From IMG/VR virus record IMGVR_UViG_3300023223_000479: DNA of 64,000 nt. One strand, 5' to 3'. Below the pieces are notes generated by a model. The model searched no databases and was not told the origin of the DNA. It saw only the letters and a program-made list of their open reading frames with translations. The DNA is from a virus. A program made the translations under genes and the position numbers. This document shows, in pieces, positions 7,084-61,325 of this stretch. Each line of letters begins with the position of its first letter. Position 1 is the stretch's first letter.

Positions 7084-7737
7084 CTAAACAAACCCTCCTA
7101 GCTCCTGGTCCCTATACTCTCTCATAGTGTTCAGAGCTAAATTATGCACTGCCTCATTACGTACATCCCCTTGATGCCCCTTAGTGTGACATACATTTAT
7201 CAGCATATCGAAATCATTTTTCTTAATCTCCCATATCTGCTTCCATAATTCTACATGCTCAATAGTTTCTCCATCTGCTTTCTTCCAACCATTAAACACC
7301 CACCCCACTAAGTAGCTGTTATACCCATTCACCACATACAAGGCATCAGATACTATCTTAACGATGGAATCATACTTATAGTCACAATGCCAACACAATG
7401 CTCTATACAAGCCTAATAGCTCTGTCTTGCCTGTTTTCCATCCCTCATTAGCTTTGGACTCCTCATAGATACATTCCGGCTCTAGTCCCTCATAGGCTAC
7501 CAACCCATAAGCCCCAAATACCCTCCCCTTATGCTGCTCATACTTATCATTTAAAATATGAGAGCTACCATCTATATAAACAAACCACACATCCTTAATA
7601 GGCTCCTCAGCCTTAAACCTAATAGCCGGATGTACTATTATTGTAGGGTTTCCTTGGTCCTCATCCCAAGGCATTAAGGGCTCATCCTCCTTATCTCTAT
7701 CGGGATCTACCCACAGTATCTTATTACTCATGCTCAA
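7084..7737 (-). CDS. rnhA: Ribonuclease HI
   Basis: Motifs YIDGSS, TELLG, SDALYVVNG, WKKADG...HVELWK, HTKGH and NEAVHNLA match the RNase H acidic active-site layout. Confidence 0.9.
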   Translation of the reverse strand: MSMSNKILWVDPDRDKEDEPLMPWDEDQGNPTIIVHPAIRFKAEEPIKDVWFVYIDGSSHILNDKYEQHKGRVFGAYGLVAYEGLEPECIYEESKANEGWKTGKTELLGLYRALCWHCDYKYDSIVKIVSDALYVVNGYNSYLVGWVFNGWKKADGETIEHVELWKQIWEIKKNDFDMLINVCHTKGHQGDVRNEAVHNLALNTMREYRDQELGGFV

Positions 7738-7993
7738 CTTGATTAAGGTCTAATTCAGGCTTATTAAATGTAGTGCTTAGTTTTACCGGCTGCACACTAT
7801 CTCCGAATGTCAACACAGATACGTATATTCTACCGGTGAATAAAAATTTTATCCTACCCCATAATCCCATACCCCAACACATAACTACACCCTTCTCCAA
7901 GGTATTACTATCCTTGTATGCAGGTAAGCTATTACCCTCTCCTAGTCCTGATCCTACTACGGTATTAGATTCCTTAAACTTGACTGGTTTCAT
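7724..7993 (-). CDS. Conserved phage hypothetical protein
   Basis: MKPVKFKESN...LPAY...VMCW...GRIYVSVLTFG...QP pattern is common in phage ORFs. Confidence 0.7.
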   Translation of the reverse strand: MKPVKFKESNTVVGSGLGEGNSLPAYKDSNTLEKGVVMCWGMGLWGRIKFLFTGRIYVSVLTFGDSVQPVKLSTTFNKPELDLNQVEHE

Positions 7994-8031: not shown

Positions 8032-8064
8032 CAAAAAATAAAGGGAGACTAAAAGAGCCTCCCT
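8032..8064 (-). terminator. Rho-independent terminator
   Basis: AGGGAGGCT-CTTTT-AGTCTCCCT followed by TTATTTTTTG, downstream of the helicase. Confidence 0.8.
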
Positions 8065-8087
8065 CACACAAAACACACTTACAATTA

Positions 8088-9689
8088 TCATTTTTTCTTT
8101 TCGGGCTTAGGCAAATATACTAATTCATTCTTAGCCCTGGTTACAGCCACATACTCCAAGTTCCTCTCCTGCTGTATTTGCCAAGGTTTAGAGGCATACT
8201 TACTAGGCATCAACTCAGGATGCAAAATAAATACCCTACCATTCTCCAAGCCCTTAGCCCTATGTATTGTAGATAGTACAATACCATCTTTATCATCACT
8301 AAATATGGTCTTAATTGTATTACAGATCTGAGAGGGTGTATTGCAATTCCTCATCTCCTCAAACACCCTAATAATTTCAAGCTTCTGATTAAAGTTAATA
8401 TACTCCTGCTCATCCTGTATCTCGTTGGGGCAGACACCCTTTCTAATGAGCCGATTTGTTATCTTTTGAAGCATACCCTCAAACCTCATCCACATAGTTT
8501 TTAAACTCTTTGTTCTTGTAGATTCTACTACCTGAATAAGATGCTTACCAATATCTCTACCCATGATATTAGCCTTAATCCCCTTAGCTAGGAATTTCAA
8601 ACACATCTCCACAAGGGGTAAAGTATTACGGCATAAAACATAGTCCCCTACTCGTACCTCTTCAGGTTTCCCTACTCTTACTATCCCCTCTAATGCTCCT
8701 GGTTTCCATTGGATATCCTCGACAATCTTTTGAGCCTCCTTAATGATATTAATATCGCACCTATAACAAACAGTAAGAGGAAGCGTTTTTGTATTGGGCA
8801 TCTGCTGTAGTTTTTCAAAGCTTTCGGCATCTGCTCCTGCAAATCCATAGATAGCCTGCCTATCATCACCTACTGCAATAAACCTTCCAATCCTATGCTT
8901 GATCACCCGCTGTACTAAAGCTCTCTGAGCAGCGTTTAAATCTTGAGCCTCATCTACAAATACCCGATCATAGCCCCACACCCTGATAGAGTCTTGAGCC
9001 ATAATAGGGTAATACACCATATCTACAAAATCAAATACTTTCTTATCCTGATATGCCTCAACCACACAGTTAACATTATCCAAGTGCTGCTTATTCATCT
9101 GCTCTAACACCTCAATACAATGATCTATCTCACCGTTAAATATATCTATTCCATGCTTTACAGCTACCTCAGCAATCTCCTCCTTAGTAGATGCTAATGA
9201 TAGTCTAGCCATATCTACAAGCTTCTTAACGTTGTACCTGTAATTTCTGGTAAGGCTATCCCAATGCTCATTGTTTGGATCTACCTGCATCTCCTTACCG
9301 CTTGCCTCATCCATCACAGATATAACCCAATTCTTAGCCATAACCCCTATATAGTTCTTAGCCTTGTTATTATCTAGCTCTATCGTCTTCAAATTCCATC
9401 TCAAGATAGACCATCCCAAACCATGCAGAGTCTTAATATCCAGCTTGAAATTATGCCATACCTTTTTGAATCTGGACTCAAACTCCTCTTTGATGCTTTT
9501 ATTAAACGCCAAAAATAGCACCTTAAAACTATAGGTTACATTTGTAGGTAAGAATTGCAAAGCGTGCTCTATAGTAAATGTTTTACCTGATCCGGCCCTG
9601 GCTTTTATAACCAGATTAGAAGCACCTAATTTAATCTGTTCAAATACGGTTAACTGCTGATTATTATAAACTATTTTTTGAGATACCAT
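8088..9689 (-). CDS. UvrD/Rep-family SF1 helicase
   Basis: Motifs ARAGSGKT, DEAQD, VGDDRQAIYGFAGA, YRC, STIHRAKGLE and YVAVTRAK. Confidence 0.93.
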   Translation of the reverse strand: MVSQKIVYNNQQLTVFEQIKLGASNLVIKARAGSGKTFTIEHALQFLPTNVTYSFKVLFLAFNKSIKEEFESRFKKVWHNFKLDIKTLHGLGWSILRWNLKTIELDNNKAKNYIGVMAKNWVISVMDEASGKEMQVDPNNEHWDSLTRNYRYNVKKLVDMARLSLASTKEEIAEVAVKHGIDIFNGEIDHCIEVLEQMNKQHLDNVNCVVEAYQDKKVFDFVDMVYYPIMAQDSIRVWGYDRVFVDEAQDLNAAQRALVQRVIKHRIGRFIAVGDDRQAIYGFAGADAESFEKLQQMPNTKTLPLTVCYRCDINIIKEAQKIVEDIQWKPGALEGIVRVGKPEEVRVGDYVLCRNTLPLVEMCLKFLAKGIKANIMGRDIGKHLIQVVESTRTKSLKTMWMRFEGMLQKITNRLIRKGVCPNEIQDEQEYINFNQKLEIIRVFEEMRNCNTPSQICNTIKTIFSDDKDGIVLSTIHRAKGLENGRVFILHPELMPSKYASKPWQIQQERNLEYVAVTRAKNELVYLPKPEKKK

Positions 9690-9729
9690 AGTGTATTTGT
9701 TTTGTGTGTATGGTAAAGGTAAGATTTAT

Positions 9730-10470
9730 TTACCAACAAAACAAATACCTATAAGGGTTCATATAAATATTGTAATCACTATCGATGTATACCCGCTTAC
9801 TTACAGGTATTTTATATAGAAAGTTTCCAAACAATCTCTTTTTAATATTTGTTTCATAGGTTTCATCTGTTATAATCCTCTGCCTACCGTACTCCTTATT
9901 TCTAATTCCCACCCAAACAGCAGATTGAAAATCTCTAGGCTCTACCTGTAACTCCTTGGCTAACTCGGTTATGTAATCCTCTATTTGGGTATACTGCTTA
10001 TCTGTAACGTTATAGTATTTCTTACCGTTCCTCTCTGTAGGTATTAATCCACAAGCTTTAGCTACCCACATATCGCAAACTACAGGTTTATTATCTCCTA
10101 ACATATTCCTTTTAAAGGATTCTATCTTTCTTCCTGCAAAATCCTCCCCTCTCATTGTTTTCTCTATCTGTATAACCATAGCAGGTAGAAAATCCGGCTC
10201 CTCATTATCTCCCATTATATCTAACCCCTCCTGAATCCGGTATAATATTTTTAGGGTTTGGGTTACGTTGGCACTTAGTTGAGTTCTCTGAGATGTAGCG
10301 GCTAATAAGGTTATTACTAATTCCCAATCATACCCGAACAACCATTTTATAAATTTAAGGTTATCCTCATACCAATTGGTATGATCCCTACCCTCCTGGA
10401 AATACTGTATTAGAATATCCCTATCTATATCGATGAGCCTACTACCTGTAAAAATTTTACACTCGCTCAT
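9730..10470 (-). CDS. Phage hypothetical protein, possibly HhH/DNA-glycosylase-like fold (DUF7178-like)
   Basis: NWY...LAATS...N...KIESF..N..G....VVCDMW pattern. ATG overlaps the MTase stop; codons 4-8 (CKIFT) are palindrome 10447. Confidence 0.45.
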   Translation of the reverse strand: MSECKIFTGSRLIDIDRDILIQYFQEGRDHTNWYEDNLKFIKWLFGYDWELVITLLAATSQRTQLSANVTQTLKILYRIQEGLDIMGDNEEPDFLPAMVIQIEKTMRGEDFAGRKIESFKRNMLGDNKPVVCDMWVAKACGLIPTERNGKKYYNVTDKQYTQIEDYITELAKELQVEPRDFQSAVWVGIRNKEYGRQRIITDETYETNIKKRLFGNFLYKIPVSKRVYIDSDYNIYMNPYRYLFCW

Positions 10471-11420
10471 AATCCCATAGTATTTACCATTACTCTTACT
10501 ACCTCCTGCATCAAAGGAACTACTACAGAATTACCGAACTGTTTATAAGCCTGAGTATCAGATACAACTATTTCAAACCAATCAGGAAACCCCATTAACT
10601 TTCTACACTCATTAGGAGTTAATCTCCTGGGATTTTTACCCTCCTGAGGTATTAATATCTCAGATCCATCCTTATAATATCTAGCGCTTAATGTTCTTGT
10701 AGTTCCCTCCAAATCAACCAACCCAAACCCAAACCCGTTACCTTTAAGCTTATGCTTATTTGCATGATTCTGTAAACAAGTCCACAACCCATCTGATAAG
10801 GTATATTTATCAGGTATTTTAATATCTAATATATCTCTAACGCAAGGTACTATAGTAGATATCTCTACCTGATCGAAATCAAATAGTACCTTACCTCCAA
10901 AATATACTTTATCTAGCCCCACAATTAAAATCCTCTCTCTATTTTGAGGTACAAAACCCTTACCATTTAATATTCTATAGCTAACATTATATCCCAGATA
11001 ATTAAGAACATTCGTAATAACTTTGAATGTCCTCCTTTTATCATGATATTTCAAATTCTTTACATTCTCTAATAAGAATGCTTTAGGTCTCTTCTCCTTT
11101 ATTATTCTGGCTACCTCGAAAAATAGTGTGCCCTTGGTTTCATCATAAAATCCATGATCAGCGCCTATACTATTTTTCTTTGAAACTCCAGCCAATGAAA
11201 ACGGCTGGCAAGGAAAACCGCCCACCAATATATCATGATCCGGCACCTCCTTAGCATCTACTAAACCTATATCACCCTCAATTCTACATGCAAAATTATG
11301 CCAATAAGTTTCTCTGGAAAACTTATCTATCTCAGATGAGAAAATACATTTACCTCCATTCTCCTCTAAAGCTATTCTAAACCCTCCAATACCTGCAAAT
11401 AAATCTATAAATGTAAACAT
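10467..11420 (-). CDS. dcm: DNA cytosine-C5 methyltransferase, Dcm/M.EcoRII-like
   Basis: Motifs FIDLFAGIGG, GFPCQPFS, ENVKNL, PQNRERI and QFGNSV. The TRD RTLSARYYKDGSEIL is typical of the Dcm/EcoRII (CCWGG) group. Confidence 0.93.
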   Translation of the reverse strand: MFTFIDLFAGIGGFRIALEENGGKCIFSSEIDKFSRETYWHNFACRIEGDIGLVDAKEVPDHDILVGGFPCQPFSLAGVSKKNSIGADHGFYDETKGTLFFEVARIIKEKRPKAFLLENVKNLKYHDKRRTFKVITNVLNYLGYNVSYRILNGKGFVPQNRERILIVGLDKVYFGGKVLFDFDQVEISTIVPCVRDILDIKIPDKYTLSDGLWTCLQNHANKHKLKGNGFGFGLVDLEGTTRTLSARYYKDGSEILIPQEGKNPRRLTPNECRKLMGFPDWFEIVVSDTQAYKQFGNSVVVPLMQEVVRVMVNTMGL

Positions 11421-11448
11421 ATAGGTATTACATCTTTACTATATTTAT

Positions 11449-11649
11449 CTAAATATTAATAGCCTGAAGCGTGTAACCTGTTTGGAATTCCCAATACGCG
11501 ATTTTGTCCGCCTTATTATCTCTCTCATCATATTTCATTCCTTCCTCTCGCTCAGTTGTTACTGTTTTTAAGGGCTCACCACATATAATTAATTCCGTAC
11601 CGAATTGAGATGTAAGGAGGATGTATTGTTGATGCTTACTGTTTTTCAT
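11449..11649 (-). CDS. Small hypothetical protein (probable start MKNSKH)
   Basis: The tracked N-terminal extension is actually the 45-bp promoter repeat shared with 61054-61098. Confidence 0.6.
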   Translation of the reverse strand: MKNSKHQQYILLTSQFGTELIICGEPLKTVTTEREEGMKYDERDNKADKIAYWEFQTGYTLQAINI

Positions 11650-11660
11650 AATCTTTTCTC

Positions 11661-11705
11661 TTTTGTTATAACATAAAGGTAAGCTTTTTATATTTACCAC
11701 ACAAG
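11661..11705 (-). repeat. 45-bp promoter/leader element identical to 61054-61098 (opposite orientation)
   Basis: CTTGTGTGGTAAATATAAAAAGCTTACCTTTATGTTATAACAAAA; contains the TACCTTTA -7 box. Confidence 0.92.
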
Positions 11706-11755
11706 TCCTACAAAAAATAATTTGTAAAATTTTTACACTCGCTCATATCATCTGA

Positions 11756-12073
11756 TTACTTATTATCACTCTCCCACATCTGCCTAGCATCCTCCCTAAC
11801 CCTCATACAATCCGGCCCTCCTGACTCTCCCTGTAAATATTTTACAATAGTAGCTTCAGATCTGCTATACTTACTTGCTAATATTTTTAGCTTTCTACTC
11901 CTATGCATAGTCCCTAACATATAGGTTATACATTCTAGTACTACCGGCTCTTTTTTACCCTCATCCAGATCATCTGAGTGCTCAAAATTATCTAACTTAA
12001 AATTATCAGGTATCTCTTTCTTATGATTTAAAGGATATTTGTCCTTTCTAAACCAGTTATTCCTACTACCCAT
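11756..12073 (-). CDS. Hypothetical protein (possible HTH)
   Basis: 105 aa, alone between palindromes 11723 and 12083. Confidence 0.6.
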   Translation of the reverse strand: MGSRNNWFRKDKYPLNHKKEIPDNFKLDNFEHSDDLDEGKKEPVVLECITYMLGTMHRSRKLKILASKYSRSEATIVKYLQGESGGPDCMRVREDARQMWESDNK

Positions 12074-12185
12074 AATGGTAACTGTAAATTTTTTACACTC
12101 TGTTTAGTTCTATCCTTAATATCCTAATAATACCCATCAGGCGCAAGCGCCCACAAATTTACCGATTATTGATGGTACAATAGAA

Positions 12186-13040
12186 TCACCTTAAAGCTTT
12201 AGATCTTGTAGTTATTAACTCAGATATAGGGAGTAATCTATTACACTCCTGGTAAGCATAACATTGTCCCTTACAGTACCATATAAGGTTATCGCCTTGA
12301 TCGGTACATCTTATATCTAGCACCTCCCCTTGAGTAAAGTTAGTTAGGGTAAAAATATTAATCATTCTTATTAGCCCGAAACCCTTCAACATCTTCCTAT
12401 AATAACTGCCGGTCATCTTACTGAGATTAAACCACTCACCCACTTTTTTAGCTGATATAGGTCTTAGGATTGCTCCGATGTTAGCAGTCCTCCTCTTACC
12501 CTCCAAATAAGTTTGAGTTCTATGGTTATACCTCAGTATAGAATATATGCAGGATGCTCTTAATGTTCTATTCGACGTTAGGTACTGAGCGGGTATCCTG
12601 GCACTCTGTACCCTCTTCCTGGTATCATTAACATACAATTCGACTACACCCCTCCACCCTCTCACAAAGTCGTCTGTGATCCAGCCTAATCTCTTTAATT
12701 TTTTAATGTGTATATTTGCCGTTTGTCTGGTATAGCCCATCACCATCGATAGCTGCTTCAGGGATACTATATACCTGCCATCACCCGAAACAGTCTTGAA
12801 GTATTTCAGGTATAAATAAGTCCTCAATAGAGGCAGATGATTATTCTTTATTACCTCAACTATAACAGGTAATGGAATATTTATATTATGATCTAGTTGA
12901 AAATTTTTGCTATAACTTACCCGCTCTTTAAAAGAGGTTTCTATTATCTCAGTACCTAAGATTCTGGAGTTATTTATCATACCTTCGACAGTACAACAAA
13001 CGTACTCAAAGCAGCTACAACAAACAAGCAGCGTTAACAC
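12186..13040 (-). CDS. Replication-initiator-like winged-HTH protein
   Basis: HTH-like LKQLSMVMGYTRQTANIHIKKLKRLGWI and a second ISAKKVGEWFNLSKMT; true start probably internal. Confidence 0.45.
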   Translation of the reverse strand: MLTLLVCCSCFEYVCCTVEGMINNSRILGTEIIETSFKERVSYSKNFQLDHNINIPLPVIVEVIKNNHLPLLRTYLYLKYFKTVSGDGRYIVSLKQLSMVMGYTRQTANIHIKKLKRLGWITDDFVRGWRGVVELYVNDTRKRVQSARIPAQYLTSNRTLRASCIYSILRYNHRTQTYLEGKRRTANIGAILRPISAKKVGEWFNLSKMTGSYYRKMLKGFGLIRMINIFTLTNFTQGEVLDIRCTDQGDNLIWYCKGQCYAYQECNRLLPISELITTRSKALR

Positions 13041-29770: not shown

Positions 29771-30249
29771 TAACCAAAGGTAAGGTTTATATAATTAACA
29801 TCCTAATAAGAAAGGTAGCCCCGTATAGAGACTACCTTTACCAACGTTTAGAAAGCAATGACCCTTAATAGATCATCTTATTTGAAAGAACGAGACTAAC
29901 TATATTTTATAATCAAAGTAAAGGGTTTCTCTTTTATCCTCAAACGTATTTAAGTAGTTGCTCTGGGAATCAGTCTAAGTATCTGATTCAACTCATTTTT
30001 ATTCTCACAGTCACAACGAGAGCTTACCCTTTACTTTGACTACTACCTTACGAAATTTTTTACAATCTCTGCGATAGGTCTATCATAGTTCCTTCTATAA
30101 GAGGAAAAGGAAATAATAGAAATATTTATATTATTAGATACAGGTTTATACTCTGCCTTCTGCCTTACTTTTTTCTTTTGTGCCATACCCCAATATAACA
30201 ATTTACCCTTACCTATCAAACCTCTGAGGAAGTGTAAAATTTTTACAGG

Positions 30250-53507: not shown

Positions 53508-54206
53508 TTACCCTACATATCTAAATAATCTTTCTACTACAGGCTTACCCTCCTCAAGCCTTAAAACAGATTTCATCTCCATCTCCCAAACACACTCAAA
53601 ATCATCAGGAGCATTATATTCAGATATAAATACTATATGGCCCTCCCTAGTCTTTTGTCTGCACCATTCCCAAAATCTAATACCATCAAACTTTGAAACA
53701 TTATATTCAGTAGTTCCTTTATAGGGAGGATCACAATAAATGATAGACTTTTCCGGTATATATAATCTATCGTATTGTCTATAACCTAGCTGTACTCCTT
53801 GCAGTTTTCTCGATTGTCTAACAGCAGCTTTATAGCCAGATTTTATATAATCCTTACCCTTTGAATCTCTTCTCCATCCTCCAAAATACTTACCTCCAAA
53901 ACTTAAATGAAATCCGTAATATCCTTTCATACCAGGATCTTTAGAGGATTTCATTTGATGGTAAATCCCCTCATTTGTATCTGCATTAGATTTAGGTAAC
54001 TCATCAAGCCTATCTCGGATTGTTTCTAATGCTTTTATTGCGTAGAAATTGCTGTCCCCTCCTATACGATTACCGGAAACCTTATCAATCATATTTCCAC
54101 CACCCACAAAAGGCTCAACATAAAATTGTCTATAACCCCTTCTCTCTTTTAGGATTATCTTTAATATATGTTTCGCCAATTTTGTCTTACTCCCCATGTA
54201 TATCAT
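53508..54206 (-). CDS. D12-class N6-adenine DNA methyltransferase (Dam-like)
   Basis: YMGSK, YVEPFVGGG and IYCDPPY motifs. Confidence 0.88.
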   Translation of the reverse strand: MIYMGSKTKLAKHILKIILKERRGYRQFYVEPFVGGGNMIDKVSGNRIGGDSNFYAIKALETIRDRLDELPKSNADTNEGIYHQMKSSKDPGMKGYYGFHLSFGGKYFGGWRRDSKGKDYIKSGYKAAVRQSRKLQGVQLGYRQYDRLYIPEKSIIYCDPPYKGTTEYNVSKFDGIRFWEWCRQKTREGHIVFISEYNAPDDFECVWEMEMKSVLRLEEGKPVVERLFRYVG

Positions 54207-54670: not shown

Positions 54671-55960
54671 ATGAATGTTATGATCAAGATAGTCAAATCT
54701 AACCGTAAAGTAAGCCCCTTCAGCGGAATCTCTTTTGTTATCAATGAGATTGAAAAAGCCTATATACCCGCACTCATTGATAACTCATTTCCTAAACGTC
54801 ACGGCAGTAGCAAGTACGGATATGCTGATGCAATTCTCTCCCTGATTTATGGTACAATATGCGGGGCTGATAGATTGGATGATTATGCCTCTCTAAAAGG
54901 TAAACTCAACGATTCCTCCCTTAATATTCCCTCTCCTGTATCGTTGGGTAGGATCATGAAAGAGAAACTTAAAACCTCTAATACTGTAGTAGGTAATCAC
55001 ACCATCAACATCAACGAAAGACTCAACGAGTTACTATTGGATATAGCCGTTTCTTTGGGTCAACTCAACGTGAATAACAAATACATTTTAGATTATGATA
55101 ATACCTGCATCCCTTGTGAGAAAGAGGATTCAGATTGGACCTATTTGAAATTTAGAGGGTATCAACCAGGAGTATCCTTTATAGGTCAGATTCCAGTTTA
55201 TATTGAAGGTATGAACGGGAACAATAACGCTAAGTTCGATCAGACCAATACATTAAAGCGCACCCTCTCAAATCTCAAACGGAAAGGAATACAAGTTAAA
55301 GTATTTCGGGCTGATGCTGCCAGTTATCAAAGTGAAATATTTGAGTTAATGACAGAGGAAAACATAACTATTTTTGTACGGGCTGAAAATAATCCTGATC
55401 TGATGGACTTCATAAAATACCACAGATCTAACGCATGGGATACTGTAACGCTGAAATACGACACCTTTGAAATATGTAGCTTTGAATACACACCTTTCAG
55501 CGCACAAAAGAGCTATAGAAAAAACCAGAAAGAATACAGGATAGTTACAGCCCGCAGACCAAGAGCAGATGGTAAGCCACATCATATAACAGGAGAGCCT
55601 TACGTATATCGTTCAATCATTACCGACGACCAAAACATATCAGACTTAGAGGTGATTGCGACCTATAACCAACGTGGCGCAATCGAAAGGAACTTCGATG
55701 TTCTTAATAATGATTGGAACTGGAATAAGCTCCCATTCTCTTTCCTCAGTGAGAATACAGCCTTTATGATCATTACCGCTATGGGGTTAGTTATGTACAA
55801 GTATATCGTTGAGTTATTTGCTGATAGGGTGGATTGGATTGAGGAAACAGATAGGCTAAAGAGGTTTCGGTATAACGTTATATCAGTAGCAGGAGAATGG
55901 GAAGGGGATACTCTTATGATACACGATGAGAGTAGACCCTGGGAGCAGCTTGTGGGGTGA
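54671..55960 (+). mobile_element. IS1380-family transposase (DDE_Tnp_1_4)
   Basis: SPFSGISF N-terminus, LDYDNT, GYQPG, RADAASY and YNQRGAIERNFD match Bacteroidota IS1380 transposases; 429 aa, intact. Element ends not identified. Confidence 0.88.
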
Positions 55961-60983: not shown

Positions 60984-61053
60984 ACTCAAATATACCTACA
61001 ATAGATTATTAAGGCAAAGGTGTAAAATTTTTACAAAGTATTTTAGGTGGAGG

Positions 61054-61098
61054 CTTGTGTGGTAAATATAAAAAGCTTACCTTTATGTTATAACAAAA
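61054..61098 (+). repeat. 45-bp promoter/leader element identical to 11661-11705
   Basis: Exact inverted copy about 49 kb away, again next to a palindrome. Confidence 0.92.
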
Positions 61099-61109
61099 AA
61101 GAAAAAGAA

Positions 61110-61325
61110 ATGAAAACTTCAAAAATAACCGCCGGAACTTACAGCATCACAACAGCAAACGGAAAAGTATTTGTAGCACGTAAAGGAAAAAACGGGTTTT
61201 GGAGTTTGTTTAACTGTAAAGATTCAGATTCGACTCATGAAGATAACTGGCAAGATACCTACAACTCCTTGAAAGAATGTAAGTTAGAGGCAGAAAGATT
61301 CTCTAAGTTTGACCACACTAACTAA
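61110..61325 (+). CDS. Small protein in an inverted single-gene block (start MKTSK)
   Basis: Promoter, gene and terminator lie between palindromes 61021 and 61389. Confidence 0.75.
   Translation: MKTSKITAGTYSITTANGKVFVARKGKNGFWSLFNCKDSDSTHEDNWQDTYNSLKECKLEAERFSKFDHTN

Follow-up and report, generated by a model that had tools for sequence, protein, structure and literature searches.

The 64,000-nucleotide (nt) stretch of DNA analyzed here over its whole length (IMG/VR virus record IMGVR_UViG_3300023223_000479, hereafter the window) comes from a phage whose genome measures ~95 kb, and it carries a Dcm-like C5 cytosine DNA methyltransferase (MTase) gene in a cassette flanked by two copies of a 25-bp direct repeat, which is built on a palindrome common at the gene junctions of this phage. 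In a complete and collinear relative, the same palindrome-bounded slot is filled with a D12 adenine MTase, the ortholog of which lies elsewhere in the window. We put at about even the chance that the cassette was swapped by recombination that used the palindromes as short homology, in an old palindrome-bounded slot, and that the 10 bp by which the repeat extends past the palindrome are the footprint of this exchange.

The 25-bp direct repeat and its 10-bp extension

An exact pattern search of the window with TGTAAAAWTTTTACACTCGCTCATA returned exactly two matches, at positions 10447-10471 and 11723-11747 on the plus strand, both with 0 mismatches to the W-containing pattern. The copies differ at the central W alone (A in the former and T in the latter), which confirmed the repeat as described in an initial annotation of this DNA, and the third-best match (30223-30247), with 3 mismatches, was the sole other near match in the window. 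They are spaced by 1276 bp from start to start, with 1251 bp between them, and on the minus strand both read TATG AGC GAG TGT AAA, i.e., TATGAGCGAG followed by the palindrome. Copy A (10447-10471, minus strand) consists of palindrome 3 (10447-10461) and the extension (10462-10471); it gives the stop codon of the MTase and the ATG (10470) of a 246-amino acid (aa) open reading frame (ORF) at 9730-10470, which begins with MSECKIFT and encodes a DUF7178 protein. Copy B (11723-11747, minus strand) consists of palindrome 2 (11723-11737) and the 10-bp extension (11738-11747; TATGAGCGAG on the minus strand). Its ATG at 11746 opens a stub mini-ORF of 12 codons (11708-11746, minus strand; MSECKNFTNYFL and a stop), 9 nt past the TAA of the upstream gene, gene105, and in frame with that gene (frame 0 translation).

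Read along the minus strand, the locus is arranged as palindrome 1, gene105, extension plus palindrome 2, a promoter head, a 66-aa ORFan, the C5 MTase, extension plus palindrome 3, and the DUF7178 gene. The three palindromes split the region between a winged-helix gene (12186-13040) and the DUF7178 gene (9730-10470) into two slots, and the repeats enclose what is, by its predicted features, a self-promoted unit of head, 66-aa ORFan, and Dcm-like C5 MTase.

Of the 25 repeat bases, 15 belong to the palindrome TGTAAAAWTTTTACA. With ≤2 mismatches allowed, the window contains 36 copies of it, against 0.44 expected, and thus only the 10-bp extension needs explaining. The probability of sharing it was calculated from the observed base frequencies at each flank position and over all 630 pairs of the 36 palindrome copies. 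The bases directly upstream of the palindromes are biased, being G/A-rich and often GAG, AGG, or GGG; with this position-specific flank composition, a match at all 10 extension positions has a P of 6.3e-6 per pair. Since only 0.004 pairs sharing the extension are expected among the 630 pairs (0.0002 among the 35 adjacent pairs), the extension of the repeat is not a product of chance. It is the longest flank common to any palindrome pair in the window, the next ones measuring 9 nt and 7 nt, and it is carried by 2 of the 36 palindromes of the window and by 0 of the 49 in the relative.

The perfect identity over 25 bp gives way to unrelated sequence at a sharp boundary. Upstream of the two copies (11748-11775 versus 10472-10499), 15 of 28 nt match, a level that is reached by 3 of the 630 pairs, and the local alignment has a P of 0.57; a duplication longer than 25 bp was dropped on these two grounds. 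Within the same comparison, the first 16 positions differ by four transitions only, and an alternative frame upstream of copy B reads RVIISNQMI and a stop, next to RVMVNTMGL and a stop at the MTase C terminus. This statistically unproven likeness could be the decayed remnant of an earlier MTase 3′ end. A third, degenerate copy of the repeat inside the ORF at 7724-7993 was likewise rejected: the peptide behind the match, MGLW.RIKFLFTG, is conserved as a motif in the ortholog of that protein.

The palindrome copies of the window lie nearly all at minus-strand gene junctions, as a rule just past the stop of one gene and 1-12 nt ahead of the ATG of the next. A promoter-like box follows ~17 nt downstream of some of them, and most have no promoter. 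As RNA, the palindrome would fold into a weak hairpin (−1.0 to −1.8 kcal/mol) with neither a G+C stem nor a T-run. The window and the complete relative each contain tens of short perfect dyads that are mostly intergenic or at gene 5′ ends, and the form of the palindrome suggests a site for a dimeric binding protein. A scan of IMG/VR with the bare palindrome gave just single chance matches in other contigs, among the matches listed.

An apparent methyltransferase swap between collinear phages

The phage is almost a singleton, as no close relative (>90% identity) was found in any collection searched. IMG/VR scans with the DUF7178 protein, the helicase protein encoded next to it, and the 25-mer found nothing; in JGI metagenomes, a 24-mer scan gave 0 matches and a DUF7178-alignment scan gave 0 confirmed ones. 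In a DNA-level search, the MTase gene was the sole region of the window with a match in the phage collection. The best helicase homolog (43% identical) lies on a contig with partial synteny only (RNase H downstream), which has no DUF7178 gene, MTase, or palindrome at the locus. Two IMG/VR contigs matched through the terminase (L127 and L128) were rejected as relatives, for they have no palindrome and no synteny.

An exhaustive profile-free DUF7178 search yielded one ortholog, P0124, in a relative designated G001 (IMG/VR 3300009788_000005; 85,758 bp, 100% complete according to CheckV, with direct terminal repeats; its locus coordinates are given on L124). G001 is collinear with the window over essentially the whole length at 35-75% aa identity. 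It contains 49 copies of the identical palindrome (≤1 mismatch) at the same kinds of position, whereas a control pattern gave 0. No C5 MTase is present anywhere in this complete genome. The promoter, small ORF, and C5 MTase, which the initial annotation had taken for a discrete unit, are indeed a lineage-specific and palindrome-bounded one that is wholly absent from G001.

Between the same conserved genes, the G001 locus reads palindrome, 76-aa ORF, palindrome, D12 MTase, palindrome, and DUF7178. Both mini-slots are therefore bounded by palindromes in both phages and contain different cargo, so that differences in gene content coincide with the motif at each of them. In the first slot, the 76-aa ORF (L124 9069-9299), the 3′ end of which runs through palindrome 2, is unrelated to gene105. 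The interval 11756-12073, which the initial annotation used as one side of the expected junction, is not a stable flank, for gene105 is an ORFan that is replaced by the unrelated ORF in G001. In the second slot, palindrome 3 of G001 contains the TAA stop of the D12 MTase and is followed by one further base and then by the DUF7178 ATG. All three G001 locus palindromes (L124 9047-9061, 9276-9290, and 9985-9999) are directly preceded by ATG, compared with 5 of 49 genome-wide. Each of these ATGs opens MCK(N/I)FT through the palindrome, in the same frame as the ATGAGCGAG copies of the window.

The D12 (Dam-like) adenine MTase of G001 (L124 9297-9989) has an ortholog in the window at 53508-54206 on the minus strand (PF02086, 2e-13). 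No other gene departs from the collinear order of the two phages; the window copy is ~42 kb away from the slot. That copy sits inside a ~6-kb block (about 50.6-56.7 kb) absent from G001, together with plus-strand ORFs and a transposase-like gene (54671-55960). In G001, a frameshift in a stretch of seven T (L124 about 9590-9620) breaks the D12 MTase into two ORFs, for which decay to a pseudogene, misassembly, or slippage could account.

In a third syntenic phage, which is more distant (L134; 49% GC), the two backbone genes flank yet another set of genes. The junction palindrome of L134 is a different one, TTAAACWGTTTAA, with five copies in 8.7 kb (positions 1536, 2685, 3524, 5292, and 7389), one of them with a central G. 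The change of sequence suggests that the junction palindrome coevolves with a lineage-specific binding factor. The 25-bp repeat had been put forward as the most direct evidence of gene acquisition at this site; gene turnover is indeed concentrated at this locus, and the cross-genome comparison is more direct evidence for it than the repeat alone.

Proposed exchange of cargo in a palindrome-bounded slot

Because the boundary palindromes of G001 enclose a D12 MTase, the event looks like a replacement of cargo in a two-palindrome slot. In the scheme that we favor, the three palindromes, which divide an old variable locus between two backbone genes into two slots, the second of which holds the C5 cassette in this phage and the Dam-like MTase in the relative, would serve as short homology patches for the exchange of cassettes by recombination. 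The route may lead through non-allelic or allelic palindromes of coinfecting relatives or through reinsertion of a circle excised between two palindromes. The 10-bp extension would then be the footprint of the exchange or a conversion tract that overran the upstream edge of the palindrome by 10 bp; these bases might have been copied from the native MTase 3′ end to the other boundary, or the upstream gene may once have ended in them and passed them on to the DUF7178 boundary. As a by-product, they would supply the TGA stop of the MTase and, upstream of the palindrome, an ATG for DUF7178, with a dead 12-codon stub at the other boundary. Recombination at the palindromes as the cause of the swap is what we infer, and so is the pathway.

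Carry-over of upstream flanks appears to recur in these phages. Another palindrome pair of the window shares a 9-nt upstream flank, and so does a pair in G001, both formed by nonadjacent copies. Together with the differing central base of the repeat and the ATG flank at the three G001 locus copies, these 9-nt flanks suggest that an exchange or repair tract may run past the palindrome more than once.

Several points weigh against cassette exchange. The only complete relative is ~50% diverged and there is no close one, so that the event and its junctions are not reconstructable. For homologous recombination, a patch of 15 bp (15-25 bp) is very short, and the neighboring and large ORFs scanned in the window included no identifiable recombinase. 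A crossover strictly inside the palindrome duplicates no flank; hence, either a flank shared beforehand or an overrunning conversion tract is required. The codon usage of the MTase is among the best fitting in the phage, with no compositional sign of a recent foreign origin. Finally, a helicase unit next to the locus (8041-9727, minus strand) is also absent from G001 and has no canonical palindromes at its edges. A foreign composition of the cassette was considered as a separate candidate and rejected, since the codon fit of the MTase is among the best of the phage and its GC content is ordinary.

The initial annotation had instead proposed insertion into an empty site, in which gene105 was once joined to DUF7178 via a single 25 bp and a 1.25-kb unit, e.g., a circle with one palindrome, integrated and thereby duplicated the true gene start. 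The order extension-palindrome-cargo-extension-palindrome is indeed that of a Campbell-type product if the incoming DNA and the target share 25 bp, an empty intermediate could have arisen by loss of a D12 cargo between palindromes 2 and 3 (the D12 gene being elsewhere now), and gene 14 of the Cluster O phages is a precedent of exactly such a form (PMC4351075). However, an MTase-lacking relative was expected to keep one 25-bp copy joining 11756-12073 directly to 9730-10470, with both copies regardless of the insert, or a different junction, speaking against insertion; G001, the only complete relative, has an occupied slot with both boundary palindromes around the D12 MTase and with other junction sequences, so that the simple form of the proposal fails for it. 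At ~54% aa identity, a recent empty intermediate is possible. Further difficulties are that gene105 is an ORFan absent from the relative, that the orthologous DUF7178 starts after the palindrome so that ATGAGCGAG is not demonstrably the ancestral start, and that the incoming DNA would need the same 10 bp beforehand. The bounding of the cassette by the palindrome thus stands; an empty single-copy site does not appear in the comparison, the duplication of the gene start is not secure, and insertion of this kind seems unlikely to us.

Alternatively, the cassette may already have been in place when short-patch gene conversion or templated repair between neighboring palindromes copied the 10 bp, in which case the repeat would be silent on how the cassette arrived. 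Such homogenization accounts for the sharp edge between the 25-bp identity and unrelated sequence and for the differing central base, which fits a tract ending inside the palindrome; the nonadjacent pairs with 9-nt common flanks in both genomes and the ATG flank common to the three G001 locus copies are in line with it. It would, however, require that one step rewrote both the MTase stop and the DUF7178 start and still left a viable phage, and the turnover of cargo in the slot is independently documented, which makes a link to exchange the simpler account. We regard homogenization alone as a doubtful explanation.

A more active role of the palindrome is conceivable, in which it is the recognition site of a phage-encoded protein that promotes cassette exchange, in an integron-like or nicking-initiated manner that involves no known integrase. 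Its mechanistic signature would be the asymmetric 10-bp duplication, and TGTAAAAWTTTTACA in two phages and TTAAACWGTTTAA in the third would have coevolved with the protein. This version appears quite improbable to us.

Dedicated mobility, i.e., a transposase or site-specific recombinase that recognizes the palindrome, with the 25 bp as a target site duplication or the core site of recombination, is very unlikely. The palindrome is shaped like the site of a dimeric protein and is perfectly conserved between phages with ~50% protein identity, and a transposase-like gene does exist at 54671-55960; yet G001, with its identical palindromes, lacks a counterpart of that gene. The unit encodes an ORFan and the MTase only, with no transposase, integrase, or terminal inverted repeat in or beside it, and no inverted-repeat pair lies within the 1.28-kb unit among the 25 longest of 73. 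Moreover, the duplication is asymmetric (10 bp on one side and 0 on the other), unlike that of a staggered cut centered on the palindrome, and the palindrome positions are conserved between the genomes, so that the copies behave as fixed punctuation. A match of the 10 bases by coincidence, or as an extended functional motif, is hardly credible: the biased upstream bases make 2-3 of 10 matches cheap, but 0.004 full matches among 630 pairs, and the presence of the extension in 2 of 36 window copies and 0 of 49 in G001, argue against it.

Relation to known systems of phage gene shuffling

In our assessment, cassette exchange at these palindromes would belong to a known style of phage gene shuffling, represented by promoter-early stem-loop (PeSL) cassettes and Cluster O dyads, rather than to a new mechanism. 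In T4-type phages, ORFans flanked by PeSLs are swapped and mini-circles are formed (Arbiol et al. 2010, PMC2839356; Comeau et al. 2014, PMC4122927), and exchange by recombination between the flanking copies has been proposed and partly demonstrated (PMC2839356). The palindrome of the window resembles the PeSL in being a short motif repeated many times that flanks ORFans and accessory genes, with relatives differing by insertion, deletion, or replacement of the flanked gene, and in bringing a promoter along with the gene. In contrast to the PeSL, its core is a 15-bp perfect AT-rich palindrome with a weak RNA fold and not a terminator stem-loop, and it stands at most gene junctions, including those of conserved operons, whereas PeSLs occur in hyperplastic regions. 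The promoter is joined to some copies only and is of the predicted Bacteroidota type, not sigma-70, and mini-circles are a feature of the PeSL system.

Cluster O mycobacteriophages carry a 17-bp dyad repeat, and some of their indels are flanked by two copies where other phages have one; recombination between repeat copies is taken to underlie them too (Cresawn et al. 2015, PMC4351075). Similarities to the palindrome here include >30 perfect dyads per genome, invariant TGT...ACA-ended arms with a free A/T center, a location that is mostly intergenic or at gene 5′ ends, and a suspected dimeric binding protein. The two systems differ in sequence, host phylum, and phage lineage, in the 10 bp by which the present repeat extends past the dyad, and in that cargo is replaced (C5 versus D12 MTase) rather than simply present or absent. 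Where Cluster O relatives show exactly one copy, G001 has two, and no relative with an empty slot was found.

Lambdoid morons are units of promoter, gene, and terminator that one phage carries and its relatives lack between the same neighbors. The C5 unit is like them an autonomous accessory-gene unit between backbone genes that the relative lacks; it differs in that the slot is palindrome bounded and occupied in the relative too, and in that a promoter is predicted and a terminator is absent, the MTase TGA overlapping the DUF7178 ATG. Integron gene cassettes, with an imperfect attC palindrome of 57-141 bp, a tyrosine-recombinase integrase, and attI, are unlike the 15-bp perfect palindrome, and no integrase family matched among the neighboring or large ORFs scanned, a subset of the ORFs of the window. 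Like phage orphan MTases of the Dcm/EcoRII-type C5 and Dam-type D12 groups, the enzyme is a full-length PF00145 protein with a predicted host-type promoter and no identifiable restriction partner alongside; it stands apart in that its best phage homolog is only 62% identical.

What is new here is the statistics of the 25-bp repeat, a complete syntenic relative with the same palindrome, a methylase-for-methylase swap with a translocated D12 gene, and a third relative with a different palindrome. The locus appears to be a comparatively supported case of phages swapping antirestriction genes, with a cytosine and an adenine methylase in one slot and the displaced methylase elsewhere. It would also extend the idea of short regulatory repeats as recombination linkers from T4-type coliphages and Cluster O to an uncultured lineage, probably one infecting Bacteroidota, and two or three related genomes are now available for studying the function of junction palindromes.

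Promoter head and ORFans of the locus

The cassette head (11650-11737, minus strand) is composed of the palindrome, a 17-nt spacer, a promoter-like box, cTTG-N20-TAccTTTa (core 11675-11687), and a short leader to the ATG at 11649. It is a portable element of ~95 nt: a second copy, 88-92% identical, stands before an unrelated gene on the other strand at 61021-61116, and 63 nt match 61054-61116 in inverted orientation at 92% identity. In the alignment, the identity runs from the palindrome to ATGAAAA and ends exactly at the outer edge of the palindrome.

The promoter box AAA[CG]CTTACCTTT occurs 14 times in the window versus 0.35 expected, and sigma-70-type promoters are not enriched there. The box of the cassette matches TAnnTTTG, the −7 consensus of flavobacterial sigma-A (PMC9723704), and the cassette promoter is thus predicted to be of the Bacteroidota type. 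Because of this flavobacterial-type box and a weak match of a protein of the relative to a type-IX-secretion sorting domain, the host is probably a member of Bacteroidota.

The first cassette gene encodes the 66-aa ORFan (11449-11649, minus strand), with the start taken at ATG 11649. It belongs to no Pfam or PHROG family and has no tblastn match in phages; its codon fit to the phage is poor, a value based on n = 63 codons only. Upstream of the cassette, palindrome 1 (TGTAAATTTTTTACA, with 1 mismatch; 12083-12097, no strand assigned) lies 9 nt upstream of the ATG of gene105 and forms the left edge of the first variable mini-slot, its counterpart in G001 being L124 9047-9061. Gene105 itself (11756-12073, minus strand; from the ORF list) encodes a 105-aa ORFan, the sole match of which among 5.8 billion proteins is itself; there was no Pfam or PHROG match and no likeness to L124 9069-9299.

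The C5 methyltransferase

The Dcm-like C5 cytosine DNA MTase comprises 317 aa (10467-11420, minus strand), and its TGA stop lies inside repeat copy A, overlapping the next ATG (ATGA). It matches PF00145 at 4e-86 and 289.8 bits (curated cutoff, 22) over residues 2-311 and profile positions 1-322 of 324, and it also matches phrog_116. Homologs align to residues 2-315 of 317, and thus the enzyme is full length, not truncated. The closest solved structures are those of the Shigella Dcm-type enzyme (PDB 3lx6/3me5; 3e-83), followed by M.HhaI (6e-59), which makes Dcm, the name given in the initial annotation, a fair label for the family; some relatives, M.SpyI among them, bear other annotations, and CCWGG specificity is putative. 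No restriction enzyme partner was identified beside the gene.

In the window, CCWGG is not depleted (94 sites observed versus 81 expected), whereas GGCC is strongly so (35 versus 114; z = −7.8), which suggests avoidance of a GGCC-type host restriction enzyme. Other biases concern GGNCC (57 versus 118 expected), CATG (depleted), and GTAC (enriched, 267 versus 187). An orphan C5 MTase under a host-type promoter should protect the phage DNA from host restriction, and the retention of CCWGG together with the avoidance of GGCC fits methylation protection at Dcm-type sites and avoidance at others.

The DUF7178 gene, its start, and the helicase unit

The conserved backbone gene at 9730-10470 (minus strand) encodes the 246-aa DUF7178 protein (PF23802, 4e-12), codons 4-8 of which are the palindrome. 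Its G001 ortholog, P0124, is 54% identical and aligns from window residue 15, and the first ~13 residues of the window protein are unmatched in it; the structure model (mean predicted local distance difference test score [pLDDT], 89.4) has low confidence for the first ~10 residues (mean 54). A single-sequence fold was unusable (pLDDT, 36.6). Because the ortholog starts past the palindrome and these N-terminal residues are unmatched or of low confidence, ATGAGCGAG may be a secondary DUF7178 start, and either repeat copy could be the source of the duplicated bases. At the position of the ATG of the ortholog, the aligned window sequence reads ATC/GAT, presumably a lost ancestral start.

The top structural matches of the DUF7178 model are Ogg2-type 8-oxoguanine DNA glycosylases of the HhH-GPD superfamily (Foldseek probability ~1; template modeling score, 0.42-0.52; E ~1e-2). 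K115 and D133, 18 residues apart within GRKI...VVxDxW, are invariant in 44 homologs, and we take them to resemble the catalytic Lys/Asp of endonuclease III. From the model, DUF7178 is likely an HhH-GPD-type DNA glycosylase. The domain is also found fused in very large multidomain proteins. A co-moving MTase-DUF7178 pair, like dcm-vsr or M.MthTI-Mig, was considered and rejected, as DUF7178 is a backbone gene that has the D12 MTase as its neighbor in G001 and no identified MTase with it in L134, and as its domain fusions are not MTase specific.

Downstream of DUF7178, the helicase unit contains a UvrD-type helicase gene (8088-9689), a TAccTTT-type promoter box of its own that overlaps the DUF7178 end (9715-9727), and an intrinsic terminator (8065-8041). 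In G001, DUF7178 is directly followed by the ortholog of the ORF at 7724-7993. The unit is moron-like. The only palindrome-like sequence found there, a degenerate one, stands before the next ATG in both phages.

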